Assembly (NCBI GenBank): GCA_037127795.1
Contig: JBAXXQ010000001.1
Coordinates: 144,252 to 208,251, forward strand
Direction of reading: 5' to 3'
DNA: 64,000 nucleotides
Origin: a bacterium
Lineage (GTDB): Bacteria > Patescibacteriota > Minisyncoccia > Phycocordibacterales > UBA9973
Part shown: one piece after another, positions 15,717 to 51,147 of the stretch
Position numbering within the stretch: the stretch's first letter is position 1
Layout of the letters: the number at the start of each line of letters is the position of its first letter
Program-made: the position numbers and the translations under genes
Notes under the pieces: model-generated
The model's input: only the letters and a program-made list of their open reading frames with translations
Told to the model about the DNA's origin: nothing
Databases searched by the model: none

Positions 15717-18700
15717 ATGTCAGAAAACACCAATAATCAAAAATCAGCAGCAGCACTTCGAGAAGAAAAAGTTCTCGAGTTTTGGAATAGTCAAAATATT
15801 TTTGAAAAATCTTTAGATAAAAATAAAGATGGCGCAGAGTTTGTATTTTATGAAGGACCACCGACAGCAAATGCAAAGCCAGCGCTTCACCACCTCGAAG
15901 CACGAGCATTCAAGGATACACTACCTCGCTACAAGACAATGCAAGGATTTCATGTGCGCCGCAAAGCTGGATGGGATACGCATGGTCTCCCGGTAGAATT
16001 GCAGATTGAGAAAAAACTTGGATTGCAATCTAAAAAAGATATTGAAACATTTGGTGTTGCAAAATTTAATGCAGAGTGTAAAGAAAGCGTGCACGAATAT
16101 ATTGGTACCTGGCAAAATTTTACAGAGCGCATGGGGTATTGGGTGGATTTTGAGGATGCGTACTATACGTACAATCCGCAATATATGGAGTCGCTTTGGA
16201 GTATTGTAAAAAAAATTTCTGACCGTGGGCTTTTGTACAAAGACTATCGTATTGTGCCGTGGTGTGCACGATGTGGTACTGGGCTTTCAAGTCATGAGCT
16301 TGCGCAAGGGTATGAAGATGTAAAAGATCTTTCTGTGACAGCTAAATTTAGATTGGTAGGAGAAGAAAATGTGTATATTCTTGCGTGGACAACAACACCA
16401 TGGACCCTTCCAGGAAATGTTGCACTTGCAGTGGGGGAAGATATTACGTATGTACAAATAAAAAAGGATACAGAATTTTTGATCCTTGCAAAAGAACGTC
16501 TCAGTATTATAGAAGGGGAATATGAAATAATAAAAGAAATTACAGGATCTGATCTTGCAGGACTTTCATATGAACCGTTGTATAAAATAGATAATATAGA
16601 GCATGCATACAAGATACAGGTTGCAGATTTTGTAACTACTACAGATGGTACCGGTATTGTGCATATTGCGCCTATGTATGGAGCAGACGACTTTGGTCTT
16701 GCAACAAAAAATAATTTACCAAAAGTACACACCGTGGATGATAGTGGTCACTTTATTGCAAGTATGACACCAGAATTTTTACAAGCGCGTTTTGTAAAAA
16801 CAGAAGATGTTGCAATTGATATTATCAAAGATCTTGCACATAGAGGATTACTTTTCAAAAAAGAAAAATACGAGCACTCATACCCACATTGTTGGCGTTG
16901 CAAAACTCCGCTTATTTATTACGCGCGTGATTCTTGGTATGTGCGTATGTCGAGTCTTCGTGATGATTTGATTAAAGCAAATGAAGGTATCAATTGGAAT
17001 CCAAACCATATCCAAGATGGTCGTTTTGGTGAATGGATTCGTGAAGTAAAAGACTGGGCATTTTCTCGAGAGCGATACTGGGGTACACCGCTTCCTGTAT
17101 GGACCAATGCAAACAATGAATTGCTTGTGGTGGATTCTATAGACACCCTCAAGTCATATACAAAAAAGTCTGGCAATGAATACTTCCTTATGCGACACGG
17201 AGAAACTATTCACAATGTTGCAGGAACATGGAATTGTAATATAGATAACCCAGATGCACTCACTGATGCAGGGGTACAAGGTATCGTGCAATCAATCAAA
17301 AATAGTGGACAATCATTTGATATGATCATTGCGTCACCATTTTTGCGCACACAAAAAACTGCACAAATAGTGGCGAGCGAGCTCGGTATGGCGCAAGACG
17401 TGATACTTTCTGATGCGCGTATTGCAGAGTGGAATGTAGGTGCAGAGTTTGATGGTATGCCTATGGAAGAATATTTTTCTATTCGCAATGCACACACAGA
17501 TAGATATGAATACAAAGTTGCAGACGGGGAATCATATGCTGATGTTGTAAGACGTACTGGAGAATTTTTGTATGAAATAGAACAAAAATACGCTGGTAAA
17601 AAAATCTTGATTGTATCTCATGGTGCACCACTTCGCGCATTGGAGCTTCACACTAAAGGAATTTCTTTTGAAAGTCTATTCAAAGACAGTCGTGAATATA
17701 GGAATTTTGATAATGCAGAAATTCGTCATATCGATTTTACTCCATTACCACACAGTGAAAAATATGAAATTGATTTGCACCGCCCATATATAGATAGTGT
17801 ATCTTTGATAAAAGATGGTGTGGAATACAATCGTGTCAAAGAGGTGATGGATGTGTGGTTTGATAGTGGTGCTATGCCGTTTGCACAAGAGCATTTTCCA
17901 TTCAATCAAAATATATTATATCCAGCTGATTTTATTTCAGAAGCTATCGACCAGACTCGAGGATGGTTTTATACATTGCTTGCGGTGGGGACACTCATGG
18001 AGCGGGGAAGCCCTTATAAAAATGTAATTTGTCTTGGGCACTTGCTCGACAAGGACGGCAAAAAAATGTCTAAGTCTATAGGTAATATCGTAGAACCGTT
18101 TGAGCAAATGGAAAAGTTTGGTGTAGATGCAGTACGATTTTGGATGTATAGTGTGAACCAGCCAGGAGAGAGTAAAAACTACGATGAAAAAAGTGTTGCA
18201 GAAATACAAAACAAAGTATTCTCTCTTACTTACAATGTACTTTCATTTTATGAAATGTATCGTGATCAAAATCTTGAAAAAGATCTCACTGTTGAAACAC
18301 TCAATACAGATAATGTGCTCGATGATTGGATTATTACCAAGCTCAATATACTCGTAAGTAGTATGACAGAGGATTTAGATAATTTTGAATTGTTCCGCCC
18401 AACGCGCGCTATAAAAGATTTTATCGATGATCTTTCTACATGGTATGTTCGTCGTTCACGAGACAGACTCAGAGATAATGATGTTGATGCAAAAAAGGCT
18501 TTGTATGTAGTTCTCAAAACACTCGCACAGCTCTTTGCACCATTTGCACCATTTACCGCAGAAGATCTTTGGCAAAAATTGAAAACTGAAAAAGACGAAC
18601 TATCTGTACATTTGTCTGTATGGCCAAAAGCGGGAAGTGTAGATATTGCTGTAATAGAAGAAATGGAAAAAGTCCGAACTGTATGTACAGAAGGAAATGC

Positions 18701-19070
18701 GCTACGTAAAAAAATAGGGATCGCTGTTAAGCAACCACTCGCAAGCTTCAGTATGTCGCATGATGGTTTGCAAAAGTATTACACACTTATACAAGATGAG
18801 CTCAATGTAAAAGCTATATTAGTTGGTGACTTTGCGCTTGATACAACTATTACTCCAGAGCTCAAGCGAGAAGGGGAATATCGCGAGCTTGTACGTAGTG
18901 TGCAAGATTTGCGTAAAGAAAAAGGACTTCTTCCAGGTGATATTATTTCACTCTCTATTACTCAGACTATGCACGACACTATTGCAGACATAGAGATATT
19001 CAAAAAAACTGTCCAAGCAGAGAGTGTTCTTGTGGGTGAGGAATTGAGCTTGGAGATAAAAGAGAAATAG
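15717..19070 (+). CDS. ileS: isoleucine--tRNA ligase (type-2-like) with an embedded histidine-phosphatase domain
   Basis: Class I motifs (degenerate HIGH region PPTANAKPALHHLE; KMSKS), CP1 editing, WFDSGAMPFAQ and an anticodon-binding C-terminus; an extra ~190-aa PGAM-family domain (LMRHGET...IVSHGAPLRAL) lies between RERYWGTPLPVW and DLHRPYID. Confidence 0.95.
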   Translation: MSENTNNQKSAAALREEKVLEFWNSQNIFEKSLDKNKDGAEFVFYEGPPTANAKPALHHLEARAFKDTLPRYKTMQGFHVRRKAGWDTHGLPVELQIEKKLGLQSKKDIETFGVAKFNAECKESVHEYIGTWQNFTERMGYWVDFEDAYYTYNPQYMESLWSIVKKISDRGLLYKDYRIVPWCARCGTGLSSHELAQGYEDVKDLSVTAKFRLVGEENVYILAWTTTPWTLPGNVALAVGEDITYVQIKKDTEFLILAKERLSIIEGEYEIIKEITGSDLAGLSYEPLYKIDNIEHAYKIQVADFVTTTDGTGIVHIAPMYGADDFGLATKNNLPKVHTVDDSGHFIASMTPEFLQARFVKTEDVAIDIIKDLAHRGLLFKKEKYEHSYPHCWRCKTPLIYYARDSWYVRMSSLRDDLIKANEGINWNPNHIQDGRFGEWIREVKDWAFSRERYWGTPLPVWTNANNELLVVDSIDTLKSYTKKSGNEYFLMRHGETIHNVAGTWNCNIDNPDALTDAGVQGIVQSIKNSGQSFDMIIASPFLRTQKTAQIVASELGMAQDVILSDARIAEWNVGAEFDGMPMEEYFSIRNAHTDRYEYKVADGESYADVVRRTGEFLYEIEQKYAGKKILIVSHGAPLRALELHTKGISFESLFKDSREYRNFDNAEIRHIDFTPLPHSEKYEIDLHRPYIDSVSLIKDGVEYNRVKEVMDVWFDSGAMPFAQEHFPFNQNILYPADFISEAIDQTRGWFYTLLAVGTLMERGSPYKNVICLGHLLDKDGKKMSKSIGNIVEPFEQMEKFGVDAVRFWMYSVNQPGESKNYDEKSVAEIQNKVFSLTYNVLSFYEMYRDQNLEKDLTVETLNTDNVLDDWIITKLNILVSSMTEDLDNFELFRPTRAIKDFIDDLSTWYVRRSRDRLRDNDVDAKKALYVVLKTLAQLFAPFAPFTAEDLWQKLKTEKDELSVHLSVWPKAGSVDIAVIEEMEKVRTVCTEGNALRKKIGIAVKQPLASFSMSHDGLQKYYTLIQDELNVKAILVGDFALDTTITPELKREGEYRELVRSVQDLRKEKGLLPGDIISLSITQTMHDTIADIEIFKKTVQAESVLVGEELSLEIKEK
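17184..17759 (+). other. in-frame histidine phosphatase (phosphoglycerate-mutase family) domain inserted in ileS
   Basis: RHGE motif with catalytic His (FLMRHGETIHNV) and second catalytic His in IVSHGAPLRAL; no stops or frame change; it sits where type-2 IleRS has its Cys4 zinc knuckle, and no cysteines remain here. Confidence 0.75.
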
Positions 19071-47240: not shown

Positions 47241-47997
47241 AGTCCCACTTATGAGTAATACGAAAAACAAGCGTTCAAAACAGGGGTAACCCCGCAAGAG
47301 AATCTTGTGGCCGCCCCCAAAAAGGGCGGTTTTCGTATCACAATTAAGAATATGTCTTTTGACAAAAAAATCCTGTCACTTAGTGGAAACTCTTTAATAA
47401 GGGGGACTGCAGGTAATAAGTAGACAGACCTTCTGAAAACACTCCAAGTGGTTGGAGAAGTAGGAAGTAAAATTGATTTCTAGATTTCCTAATAGGAAAT
47501 AAGAGCATATGGTGGATGCCTAGGTTCTACATGGCGATGAAAGACGCAGTACGGCGAGCGATACGCTTCGGGGAGGTGCCTAACAACCTTTGATCCGGAG
47601 ATTTCTGAATGAGGAAACTCTATCAAGTAAACCTTGATAACTACTCTGCATAAGACAGACTAGAGCGCACCCAGGGAAGTGAAACATCTCAGTACCTGGA
47701 GGAAAAGAAAAAAATGTGGTGTATACCACAACATTCCCCGAGTAGCGGCGAGCGAAAAGGGAGGAGCCCAAACCTCTATCTTCGGATAGGGGGGTTGTAG
47801 GATAGAAACGTCGTTTTACGGAAAGAGTGAAAAAATTTGTGTATAGAAAAAGTTGTTGGAAACCAACGTCATAGCAGGTGATAGCCCTGTATTCGAAATG
47901 CACTTATCTCTTTTGTTTCTATTCCTGAGTACTTCAAGACATGAATAGCTTGAAGGAATCCGCCAGAACTAACTGGTAAGGCTAAATACATTGTAGA

Positions 47998-48037
<40 letters not shown>

Positions 48038-49491
48038 AACTCCGAGAGGAGGGTGAAATAGTACTGAAACCATATGCTTACAAGGAGTCGGAGCGGTTGC
48101 TTGCAACCGTCACGGCGTGCCTATTGAAGAATGAGCCAACGAGTTTATATATGTTGCAAGGCTAAGTGCAAAATGCATGGAGCCGAAGCGAAAGCGAGTG
48201 TGAAAAGCGCGTCCACTTAAGTGTGGGAAGTATCATGTATAAGACCCGAAGCCAGGTGAGCTACCCATGAGCAGGGTGAAGTGATTCGAAAGAATCATGG
48301 AGGCCCGAACCGGTTTGTCGTACAACGCATTCGGATGACTTGTGGGTTGGAGTGAAAAGCTTATCGAACCTGGTAATAGCTGGTTCTCTCCGAAATAGCT
48401 TTAGGGTTAGCGTCATGTGTTCCCCTTGGGGGTAGAGCACTGGAAAGTTTCGACAGGGAGCAATCTCGCGAAATTTATCAAACTCCGAATACCAAGGATT
48501 AAAAACATGGCAGTTAGACTACGGGGGCTAAGCTCCGTCAGTCAAAAGGGAAACAGCCCAGATCTCTAGTTAAGGTCCCTAAATATAGACTAAGTGCAAA
48601 CGAAGGATGTGAGATTTCTTCGACAATGAGGAAGTTGGCTTAGAAGCAGCCATCTTTTAAAGAAAGCGTAACAGCTCACTCATCAAGAGATCTTGCGCCG
48701 TAGATAATCGGGGCTAAGTCTATTACCGAAACTGAGGGCCCGACTAGAAGAAGAGCGGTAAGCAATAGCTTGCCACCCTCCTTCTGGTCGGGCGGTAGGA
48801 GAGTATTCGTATCTGCTGTGAAGGCGAAGGCGTGAGCCGTGCTGGAGCGTTACGAAGTAAGAATGTTGGCACAAGTAACCACAAGGAAGGTGAGATCCCT
48901 TCCCGCCGAAAAACCAAGGTTTCCAAAGCAACGATGATCGTCTTTGGGTTAGTCGGGTCCTAAGCTGATAGCGAATGCTGCAGGCGATGGACATAAGGTT
49001 AATATTCCTTAACTTCTTTCATATTCGATGGAGGGACGGAGTGTAGTACATACTGCAGATAATTGGATTTCTGTTTGTATACCGCGTATGGAGGATAGGT
49101 AAATCCGTTCTCCTGACTTTAATGTCACTATCAGGTATGCATCGTCATCTGGTACGCCAGATTAAGAGTATGGAGCACGCTTCCAAGAAAAGCTTCTAAG
49201 ATTAGTATGAGAGAACCCGTACCGCAAACCGACACAGGTGGTTAGGTCGAGAAGACCAAGGCGAACGAGTGAGAGATCCCCAAGGAACTCGGCAAAAAAG
49301 CAGCCGTAACTTCGGGATAAGGCTTGCCGGCAGAAATGTCGGCCGCAGCGAAAGTATTCCTGGCAACTGTTTATCAAAAACACAGCTCCCTGCGAACACG
49401 AAAGTGGATGTATAGGGGGTGACACCTGACCAATGCCAGAAGGTTAATTACGGATGGTGCGATTATATCAAGCTGATCTGTACAAGCCCTG

Positions 49492-49526
<35 letters not shown>

Positions 49527-49734
49527 TCTGTTTTTCAATTTCGATTGGAAGGCAGAACGGACTAGGACCGCGTATAGAAAACGATAAACAATTTAAAAGA
49601 ATAATCATTACATTTCAAGCTACCTAACATGTCGTAATACATGTTTAGTCCATTGTGATTAACGAGAGACCAACGTCACAGACCCGAACTCGCAAGAGAG
49701 GGTTAAGAGAGAGTCCAACTGAGAGGAATAGTTG
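49527..49734 (+). ncRNA. intervening sequence in 23S at E. coli position L1931 (putative small group I intron, no ORF)
   Basis: Exon reads ...ggtcctaaggU | insert | AGCGAAATTCCTTGTCGGGTAAGTTCCGAC...; the 5' exon ends in U and the insert ends in G (ttG), as expected for group I splicing; L1931 is a known intron homing site. Confidence 0.55.
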
Positions 49735-50395
49735 AGCGAAATTCCTTGTCGGGTAAGTTCCGACGCGCACGAATGGTGTAATGACTGGGAAACTGTCTCG
49801 GGGATTTGCTCGGTGAAAATACAGTACCGGTGAAGATGCCGGTTACCTGCAGTTAGACGAAAAGACCCCGGAAGCTTTACTACAGTTTGGTATTGGGTAT
49901 ATTTGTTTGTTACGTAGCATAGGAGGGAGACTTTGAAGCGCGCATTTCGGTCCGCGTGGAGTCGTCAGTGAAATACCTCTTTTCAAATGGATATATCCTA
50001 ACCACTACGGAAAAAACGCAGTGGGACAGTGCCTGATGGGTAGTTTTACTGGGGCGGTATCCTCCAAAAGAGTAACGGAGGAGTTCAAAGGTTAGCTAGG
50101 CGCGAATGGAAACCGTGCCGATAGTGCAATGGCATAAGCTAGCTTGACTGTAAGTCGGCCATGACGAGCAGGTGCGAAAGCAGAACATAGTGAACCGACA
50201 ATTCGCATTAGATGCGGTTGAAGATTAACGGATAGAAGCTACTCCGGGGATAACAGGCTAGTTCCGCCTAAGCGTCCATAGCGACGGCGGAGTTCGGCAC
50301 CTCGATGTCGGCTCACCTTATCCTGGGGCTGGAGAAGGTCCCAAAGGTTTGGCTGTTCGCCAATTAAAAAGGTACGCGAGCTGGGTTCAGACCGT

Positions 50396-50770
50396 CTAGG
50401 AATTAGAAAAGTGTGCAATTTTATTGTACTTCAAATCTGATTTCTAGATCGTCTGAATCCCGAGGAGAGTGAAAAAGAAAGAAAATTACAAAGATTTATT
50501 AAACATTATGTTTTAGTCTTTTCGTCTAATATAAGTAAAGTTCATATACAGGAGTATATGAAAGAAAGATAGAATAAAGAGAACCATCTTAATACGGCGG
50601 TCGTCTATGGTGACATAGAATGACATGCTCGACTGATATCGGTGAAACCCCCACAGGGGGGTAATACCGAGGGAACTATAGCAATATAGACCCGTAGAGA
50701 CTACACGTTGAGGTGCTTAGAAATAAGTACAAGATATAGTCCGATCCATACAGTAATGTGTGAAAAGATG
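50396..50770 (+). ncRNA. intervening sequence in 23S at E. coli position L2593 (putative group I intron, no ORF)
   Basis: Exon ...gagctgggttcagaccgU | 375-nt insert ending ...aaagatG | CGTAAGACAGGTTGG...; the AT-rich 5' half and GC-richer 3' half contain no ORF. Confidence 0.55.
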
Positions 50771-51147
50771 CGTAAGACAGGTTGGTCTCCTATCTACTGC
50801 AGGCGTTGATGATTGAGGAAGTTCGTTCCTAGTACGAGAGGACCGGAATGAACGAACCTCTGGTGTATGGGCTCTACCGCCAGGTGGATTGCCCAGTAGC
50901 TATGTTCGGAATGGATAACCTCTGAAAGCATCTAAGAGGGAAGCCAGTTCCAAGATTAGTCATCGTTGAGGGCCGTGAGAGATGATCACGTTGATAGGCA
51001 CTATGTGGAAGCGCAGTAATGTGTTAAGCAGAGGTGTACTAATTGCCCAATTCCTATTAGGAAATCTGGAAATCAACCCATTCGCAAGAATGGTTCAGAA
51101 AATTAGATTGTAGTGTATACTACAATCGCAAACACATTTGAGTGCTT

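Follow-up and report, generated by a model that had tools for sequence, protein, structure and literature searches.

A widespread compact insert at L1931 of patescibacterial 23S rRNA genes is probably an intron derived from, and rewired relative to, group I introns

Introduction

In 23S ribosomal RNA (rRNA) genes, position L1931 (rRNA sites are numbered as in Escherichia coli) is a classical homing site of group I introns, and in Simkania, Thermotoga, Synechococcus and organelles it is occupied by introns of 654-700 nucleotides (nt) that contain a LAGLIDADG gene and have been described as IC1-like, their P5 being complex (PMC1995217). In bacteria of the candidate phyla radiation (CPR), 82% of the 23S genes carry insertions, with hot spots at L1917, L1931 and L1952 that contain LAGLIDADG_1 genes, and 535 of 968 such insertions have no Rfam intron match; the short ones without an open reading frame (ORF), including 64 of 66 in Saccharibacteria, were left as "uncharacterized" or likened to intervening sequences (IVSs) (PMC11270868). 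The rRNA insertions of CPR bacteria are reportedly removed from the transcripts (Brown et al. 2015, as cited in PMC11270868). In this work we analysed a short insert of 208 nt at L1931 in the 23S rRNA gene of a patescibacterium, located at positions 49527-49734 of a 64,000-nt stretch of contig JBAXXQ010000001.1 (the whole of this stretch is here called the window). Comparison with related sequences indicates that the insert is probably a bona fide pre-23S rRNA intron, and that it belongs to a widespread family of compact, ORF-less L1931 introns of CPR/Patescibacteria which is derived from group I introns and has been rewired.

Small group I introns occur in bacterial tRNA genes, as illustrated by the subgroup IC3 introns of Azoarcus tRNA-Ile (205 nt) and Anabaena tRNA-Leu (249 nt), which resemble the family described here in size, in the absence of an ORF, in their compact core and in the GNRA loops of their peripheral helices, but differ from it in that P4-P6 is retained, the 5' splice site has its U·G pair and Rfam finds the introns. 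To our knowledge, this U·G wobble is near-universal in group I introns, all of which are considered to share a two-domain core (P4-P6 plus P3-P9). Ribozymes of the P3-P9 type from which P4-P6 was deleted were reportedly engineered by Ikawa, Shiraishi and Inoue in 2000, and are said to display weak group I chemistry and to require high ionic strength. Their cores reportedly consist of P3-P7-P8-P9 without P4-P6, as in the window family, but they are artificial, whereas the family at L1931 is natural, abundant and equipped with a replacement module.

Results

The 23S rRNA gene of the window extends from 47489 to 51062 on the forward strand, on which the features described below also lie. It matches RF02541 with 2331 bits, measures 3574 nt versus the 2925 positions of the model, and is followed in the window by a 5S gene (Rfam scan). 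Pairwise alignment with E. coli rrlH revealed two large inserts in this gene, at L1931 and at L2593. The first is placed exactly between U1931 and A1932, and the RF02541 alignment (local scan) displays one gap of about 211 nt (GGUCCUA - gap - G--AGCGAAAUUCC). The insert reads TCTG...AGTTG and is flanked by cggtcctaaggt on the 5' side and by agcgaaattcct on the 3' side; the last nucleotide is U in the 5' exon and G in the insert, and the boundaries cannot slide, because the conserved exon sequence would be broken. Insert positions are numbered 1-208, the window coordinate being 49526 + n. No ORF longer than 46 amino acids overlapping the insert was found. An original prediction made from the letters of the window had already proposed the site, the U and G termini and the lack of an ORF, and in these respects it is borne out.

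Two scans define the family to which the insert belongs. In GTDB, with one genome per species and the pattern GGTCCTAAGGT-N(190-220)-AGCGAAATTCC, 72 loci of species representatives were found to carry a 190-220-nt insert at the L1931 junction; about 64 of them are clearly homologous to the insert of the window, five, from Omnitrophota/Planctomycetes, are distinct and look like canonical group I introns, and two have no relation to it. The carriers are almost all CPR/Patescibacteria (Paceibacteria, Nomurabacteria, Saccharibacteria, Gracilibacteria and others). The metagenome scan, which used two conserved blocks of the family, returned at least 120 loci. Among the matches listed, both exon junctions are recognisable in 109, all at L1931, and these copies are ORF-less and mostly of 187-294 nt, with two near 350-370 nt; five of the 120 loci listed are chance matches. 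Overall, at least 148 distinct homologues are present at L1931, nearly all in CPR/Patescibacteria, and the ORF-less family has a size range of about 170-290 nt. The insert thus recurs at the same junction of related 23S genes and is not a chance feature of one sequence. In fact, a profile hidden Markov model built from 142 members, leaving out the window, its five closest relatives and all exon sequence, has a single nhmmer match in the 64 kb, at 49542-49734 (132 bits, E 3.8e-40). The nearest relative of the insert is found at locus L025 (Paceibacterota; 94% identity; loci carry three-figure L numbers and rRNA sites four-figure ones), and a 23S gene 95% identical to that of the window (L087; JACCDG010080934.1) contains both the L1931 and the L2593 intron. 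These relatives place the window in a Paceibacteria-like CPR bacterium. A search of viral contigs with the R/S pattern of the family gave no matches. In our data the compact architecture was encountered at L1931 and at no other rRNA site, the inserts at L1951 and L1917 being canonical group I introns that encode endonucleases.

A few members of the family were located in bins not labelled as CPR, namely L035 (a metagenome-assembled genome (MAG) of Segetibacter sp., Bacteroidota), L019, L027 and other "uncultured bacterium" MAGs, which could be explained by binning contamination or by genuine spread beyond Patescibacteria. The longest copies, L120 (367 nt) and L089 (353 nt), each contain an ORF-less insertion of about 150 nt, located in L120 in the variable region, where it is flanked by a long inverted repeat (GAGACCUCUCACACAC...GUGUGCGAGAGGUCU), and in L089 within the P9.0 loop. 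In the group of L086 the P9 region is extended and structured, and the introns measure 246-267 nt.

The structure was evaluated on an alignment of 148 distinct members, each with 16-nt exon flanks, by scoring a pseudoknotted model of 66 pairs in 13 helices. Standard pairs occupy 94.9% of the cells in the model, versus 77.9% in shuffles and 35-42% in slid controls, and none of 500 shuffles reached the observed pairing. The covariation score is 0.476 for the model against 0.155 for the shuffles, with 45 pairs changing on both sides. An all-against-all scan of the columns of the family alignment detected no further helix and no extra tertiary pairs. Counts at the 3' side of hp1 are slightly lowered, as MAFFT shifts the clade of the window by one column there, and the exon invariance of the GTDB subset was imposed by the search pattern. 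All helices of the family (hp1, A, E5, P1/P10, P2, P3, P7, P8, P9.0 and E3) can be formed in the window sequence. By the measure of sequence comparison, the predicted helices and exon pairings are demonstrated by these data; and contrary to one option of the original prediction, a degenerate intron, the insert belongs to a strongly conserved, covarying family and is not decaying.

Ninety-two nt into the intron, the putative internal guide sequence GCUACCU (49619-49625; insert 93-99) matches the reverse complement of the ligated junction AGGU/AGC exactly. Its ACCU would form P1 with AGGU at the end of the 5' exon (49523-49526; 1928-1931), the 5' splice site following 49526, and its GCU would form P10 with AGC at the start of the 3' exon (49735-49737; 1932-1934). 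P1 is paired to 99.5% and P10 to 99.8%. The guide is GCUACCU in 117, GUUACCU in 18 and GCUAUCU in nine of the 148 sequences; variants in the core of P1/P10 are C to U changes which keep a G·U pair, and mismatches at the end of P1 are rare (GCUACCC, two sequences). A guide that pairs with the last nucleotides of the 5' exon and the first of the 3' exon is a feature of group I introns, and it is the pairing for which the original prediction had seen no convincing candidate. The canonical L1931 introns, including those of Omnitrophota, have the same guide with a wobble G in a similar context, AAAGCUAGCCU, versus AAAGCUA-CCU in the window family.

Two further pairings clamp the exons. The exon strand of E5, AACGGUCC (49513-49520; 1918-1925), is the 3' strand of helix 69 (H69), which the helix holds at a stated distance of 3-10 nt upstream of the 5' splice site, and its intron strand (49565-49570; insert 39-44) is GGACCG in the window and GGACyGUU (39-46) in the family. 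In the window, exon CGGUCC pairs with insert 39-44, and in the family the helix comprises 8 base pairs (bp), with 96.2% of the cells paired and four of eight pairs changing on both sides. These co-changes were read from metagenomic hosts with variant H69 sequences: exon AAUCGUUC is accompanied by intron GAACGAUU, AACUGUCC by GGACAGUU, AACGAUCC by GGAUUGUU, AACCGUCC by GGACGG, and AAUCGUCC by GGACGAUC or GGACGGUU. Likewise, in E3 the P9.0 loop GGAAU (49725-49729; insert 199-203) pairs with exon AUUCC (49741-49745; 1938-1942), 7-11 nt downstream of the 3' splice site. Here loop GGUAU occurs with exon AUACC and loop GGUAC with exon GUACC, the pair counts being AU 127/UA 18 and UA 129/CG 6/AU 2. 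Since the intron pairs with the 3' strand of H69, the junction and 1938-1942, a retained intron would keep H69 unfolded, and the unspliced expansion considered in the original prediction is for this reason unlikely.

The 5' module begins at the first intron nucleotide with hp1 (49527-49556; insert 1-30), a 13-bp hairpin with a UUCG loop. All 12 modelled pairs of hp1 change on both sides, and the first intron nucleotide is always paired (UA 97, AU 32, CG 9 and GC 6). As in the canonical P1 stem-loop, hp1 behaves like a distal extension of P1, stacking on it across the 5' splice site. Helix A, formed by GGACU (49559-49563; insert 33-37) and AGUCC (49647-49651; insert 121-125), displays pair counts of GC 120/UA 18 and CG 123/UA 7 and, in the comparative model, ties the 5' module to the catalytic core. 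A P2-like hairpin (49626-49645; insert 100-119) ends in a GNRA tetraloop (GUAA in the window) in 147 of the 148 sequences, and eight of its eight modelled pairs change on both sides. Linker lengths are tight: 1-2 nt between hp1 and helix A, 1 nt between helix A and E5 in 148 of 148, 0 nt between the guide sequence and P2 in 138 of 148, one alignment position between P2 and helix A in 148 of 148 (the bulged U120 in the window) and, on the exon strand, 2 nt between E5 and P1. As a consequence, P1, P2, helix A and E5 close a four-helix junction. Two other registers, each offering a U·G pair at the 5' splice site, were considered and rejected: that through G33 (an extended E5) is contradicted by the covariation of helix A (G33:C125 to U:A), and that through G93 has three weak pairs only.

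The variable region between E5 and the guide sequence (49573-49617) ranges from 22 to 124 nt across the family and holds the semi-conserved blocks UAUAG, GAUAAAC and AUUACA, in which no consistent covariation was found in the family alignment. The family-wide block GAUAAAC(A) (49583-49589) resembles exon CUAUAAC(G), which precedes and enters the E5 target, and in L090 (CAGUU-UUAU-AACUG), L050 and L013 the block is capable of pairing with the E5 strand in internal competition. By mimicking the exon strand the block may serve as an exon-release switch, but the pattern is inconsistent across the subfamilies. A kissing interaction of the P2 loop (GUAAU) with the AUUAC block was discarded, as the loop varies between GUAA, GAAA, GCAA, GGAA and GUGA without matching changes.

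The 3' 80 nt of the insert have, as established by comparison of the homologues, the predicted fold of a group I catalytic half, comprising a P3-P7 pseudoknot, P8, J8/7, P9.0 and a terminal G. In P3, UGUGAUU (49654-49660; insert 128-134), 5 nt upstream of the P7 5' strand, pairs with AACGUCACA (49673-49680; insert 147-154), in which C148 is invariant and unpaired; the helix is 94.9% paired and seven of seven pairs change on both sides (e.g. GC 72/AU 48/UA 19/CG 9). The P7 5' strand lies in an R-like element, GAGAGACC (49666-49671; G140, bulged A141, G142-C145), and G140 and G142-C145 pair with G185 and G187-C190. G140-a141-G142-A143-C144 / G187-U188-C189-C190 matches the C-a-GAC / GUC-G arrangement of canonical introns; P7 hardly varies, with three sequences that co-change, and by analogy G142-C189 is presumed to be the guanosine-binding pair. 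The P8 hairpin (49681-49704; insert 155-178) has a GCAA loop, is 96.2% paired and changes on both sides at four of its five outer pairs. It is followed by J8/7 (AAGAGA) and the P7 3' strand (GAGUCC), together at 49705-49716, which represent the classical group I S element; the block AAGAKAGAGUCC is conserved in the GTDB set, a set not selected for it, and corresponds with GAGAGACC to the classical S and R elements, respectively. The P9.0 hairpin AACU...AGUU (49717-49733; stem insert 191-194/204-207), in which all four stem pairs change on both sides, precedes the terminal G (omegaG; 49734, insert 208), found in 148 of 148 sequences and directly followed by the 3' splice site. In three members (L017, L050 and L058) fully canonical GACUAUA / UAUAGUC replace the R/S blocks of the family. 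In fact, the Rfam group I model RF00028 aligns L050 from end to end (17 bits, E 0.03), skipping P4-P6 via a local end and placing its own AAGAUAUAGUC on the S block of L050. A P3-P7 pseudoknot with P8 in between, a conserved R and a AAGAUAUAGUC-like J8/7 S, and an omegaG preceded by P9.0 are all hallmarks of group I introns.

Other introns occur in the same gene and in the genes of relatives. The ORF-less insert at L2593, the I-CreI site (50396-50770; 375 nt), matches RF00028 with 49.6 bits (gathering score 50) over 50578-50763, with canonical P3-P4-P5-P6-P7-P8-P9, and its first approximately 180 nt lie outside the match; the 23S alignments of most relatives stop at L2593, where the intron is absent or different. 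Seven loci (L007, L010, L017, L047, L094, L159 and L178) contain inserts of about 460-775 nt after GGUAA (about L1951), and L070 contains one of 241 nt. All are group I introns of canonical type, mostly containing a LAGLIDADG gene (truncated in L047), and their 23S genes have the compact L1931 intron as well. They all end in ...GAA, without a canonical omegaG, as reported for the L1951 intron of Coxiella. In L044 and L077 a canonical group I intron with LAGLIDADG at L1917 is separated by a 14-nt exon (ACGGUCCUAAGGU) from the compact L1931 intron downstream, and its last two nucleotides (..CAA) recreate the E5 target AACGGUCC in the unspliced precursor. A link to ORF-containing CPR introns was sought with the I-ShaI protein sequence (PMC11270868, Fig. 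S7) as query and was rejected, as the homologues (L194-L197) belong to canonical group I introns at L1923 (AACUGU/UCUAAGG) and not at L1931. In L194-L197, which comprise I-ShaI, an experimentally characterised CPR homing endonuclease, and its relatives, the R element of the intron, CAGAGACUACACG, lies within the 3' end of the ORF.

Elsewhere in the 64-kb window no 16S rRNA gene and no tRNA genes were found, the 23S-5S pair being unlinked from 16S; it is neighbored upstream by an MS-channel-like gene and downstream by an FtsW/RodA gene. At 15717-19070 (forward strand) the window encodes an IleRS-like class I aminoacyl-tRNA synthetase of 1117 amino acids (tRNA-synt_1 and Anticodon_1), in which a histidine-phosphatase domain (PF00300 His_Phos_1, E 1e-27) at residues 490-675 splits the halves of the catalytic domain.

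Discussion

The canonical L1931 introns of Simkania negevensis, Thermotoga spp. and Synechococcus C1/C9 have in common with the window family the site, the exon context, the R/S motifs, P8 and a P9.0 ending at omegaG. The ORF-less L1931 introns of about 194-204 nt from Omnitrophota/Planctomycetes (L022, L055, L056, L057 and L072) share these features with the canonical group and are likewise comparable to the window family. In the canonical introns, however, the P3 5' strand is distal, P4-P5-P6 is complete, the splice-site pair is U·G, the guide lies at most about 20 nt from the 5' end and RF00028-type features are evident, whereas the window family displays a local P3 with no P4-P6 there, a U-A pair, the covarying clamps E5 and E3, and about 90 nt (hp1, helix A, E5 and the variable region) before the guide sequence. 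In this family the P3 3' strand finds its partner locally, only 5 nt upstream of P7, which leaves no room for P4-P5-P6 between P3 and P7. Because this domain, the U·G pair and a match to the database model are all lacking, the insert is here termed a group-I-derived variant and not a plain member of group I, and the suspicion of the original prediction that it might be unusual proved well founded, given that this is no textbook group I intron. A bipartite pairing with the 5' exon and a separate one with the 3' exon are also seen in group II introns (EBS1/EBS2-IBS1/IBS2 and EBS3/delta-delta'), a functional analogy only. The fold and chemistry of group II are unrelated. Group II introns have six domains, GUGYG...AY termini and a length of more than 400 nt, and the window element, with its 208 nt and its termini UCUG...UUG, has neither domain V nor domain VI and no Rfam group II match at E<=10. 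In a full-text literature search of incomplete coverage, no description of the compact architecture was found.

Several observations weigh against the insert being a group-I-derived, self-splicing intron. P4-P5-P6 is absent between the P3 and P7 5' strands, and studied group I ribozymes need the P4-P6 domain for efficient catalysis. RF00028, with its gathering score of 50 bits, does not match the insert even at E<=10 (301-nt query), consistent with the failure of the original prediction to see a standard core, and it does not match family member L138 either. U1931 faces A96 in 148 of 148 sequences, in place of a U·G pair. P1 and P10 are short (4 and 3 bp, respectively), and compensatory changes are not observable in them because the exon positions never vary. 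Folded on its own, the insert of the window gives a weak thermodynamic signal (z = -1.6), and the minimum free energy fold recovers hp1 but mis-pairs GGACU with the S element. The invariance of the R/S blocks in the metagenome subset was imposed by the search pattern, so that for these blocks the unbiased sample comprises the 64 GTDB sequences, and the pairing of P7, nearly invariant otherwise, rests on analogy and on three variant sequences. Furthermore, we infer splicing and its chemistry from the comparison of sequences.

Considering all this evidence, that the insert is a bona fide intron derived from group I remains the reading we regard as probable. More tentatively, and with less confidence than in its being an intron, we propose that the family may be a natural, abundant self-splicing class without P4-P6, built on a substrate-assisted scaffold (helix A, P2, P1, the 8-bp 5' exon helix and the 3' loop-exon pseudoknot) and using a Watson-Crick U-A splice-site pair. 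The helix A/E5/P1/P2 junction probably takes over the scaffold role of P4-P6 beside the P3-P8 stack, in which case the fold would be partly dependent on the substrate. In the Tetrahymena and Azoarcus structures J4/5 is the receptor of the U·G pair, and by analogy with these canonical introns the loss of the U·G pair may accompany the loss of J4/5. In the most likely mechanism, the nascent intron would capture the 3' strand of H69 (E5) and AGGU (P1, stacked on hp1) during transcription, and a guanosine at the G142-C189 site of P7 would attack the bond after U1931. G208, positioned by P9.0 and E3, would then take the same P7 site, with P10 aligning the 3' exon, and the exons would be ligated; their release would let H69 and the next segment of domain IV (towards H71) fold.

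A serious rival, although an unlikely one, is that the intron derives from group I and is no longer an autonomous ribozyme, being spliced with a host protein as scaffold or with another RNA. Protein helpers of intron splicing such as CYT-18 and maturases are well known, and this possibility would account for the absence of P4-P6 from its canonical place, for the U-A splice site and for the failure of RF00028. Other introns often coexist with the compact one: 22 of 23 loci with a locatable 3' landmark have extra downstream 23S sequence, a landmark-distance survey too sparse at 23 loci to decide on a helper intron, and the window gene itself has a canonical L2593 intron. Nevertheless, at least one locus has no extra downstream sequence, the family is ORF-less and resides in very reduced genomes with no candidate protein linked to it, and structural selection acts strongly on the entire RNA, the exon clamps and three GNRA-capped helices included, as expected for a self-folding RNA.

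It is quite improbable that the insert is excised without ligation, as a processing signal comparable to the RNase III-cleaved IVSs of helices 25 and 45, giving a fragmented 23S rRNA. Such IVSs are common in bacterial 23S genes, they are likewise short, ORF-less and lineage-sporadic, and short CPR insertions without an intron match have been provisionally grouped with them (PMC11270868). However, IVSs are simple extended hairpins at helix tips that are not ligated, whereas the window element is pseudoknotted, carries group I motifs and pairs with both exons. Its ends are not joined in one long hairpin: hp1 and P9.0 are separate end hairpins, and each end pairs with an exon. The site L1931 is no helix tip either, but a single-stranded linker at the subunit interface, joining H69 to the helix that follows in domain IV, and the R/S elements, the invariant terminal G and the guide for the ligated junction have no role in endonucleolytic removal. 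Even less probable is an unspliced expansion segment kept in the mature ribosome, for which the apparently unspliced L1931 intron of Simkania offers a precedent (Everett et al. 1999, as cited in PMC11270868 and PMC1995217). The entire 3' strand of H69 is paired in E5, G1929-U1931 in P1 and 1938-1942 in E3, with E5 and E3 co-varying with the exons, so a retained insert would compete with H69 (bridge B2a), and the conservation of omegaG and P10 would be left unexplained. Both excision without ligation and retention have little support, because the ligated-junction guide, the terminal G and the H69 clamps would be purposeless. Least probable of all, the insert would be a normal group I intron from a subgroup that is poorly modelled, with a canonical P4-P6 that went unrecognised: RF00028 is known to be insensitive for some subgroups and the helices of insert 33-125 (helix A and P2) could be renamed, but the P3 3' strand has an unambiguous, local partner (7 covarying pairs), 5 nt from P7, and the scan of all column pairs offers no other covarying helix.

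If the family does consist of self-splicing, group-I-derived introns, it would represent a new structural class of group I-type ribozyme, among the smallest autonomous splicing architectures, and a natural lineage with only the P3-P9 half and exon clamps would show that P4-P6 is dispensable in nature. It would also provide a compact natural scaffold for structural and engineering work, for instance on trans-splicing and RNA circularisation. For CPR bacteria, where reliance on the Rfam model left more than half of the 23S insertions unclassified in the latest survey (PMC11270868), a dedicated covariance model would reclassify many of these insertions as introns, improving both the annotation of the 23S genes and their phylogenetic use. 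Finally, such an intron must hold H69 unfolded until ligation, which would link splicing to the assembly of the intersubunit bridge region.

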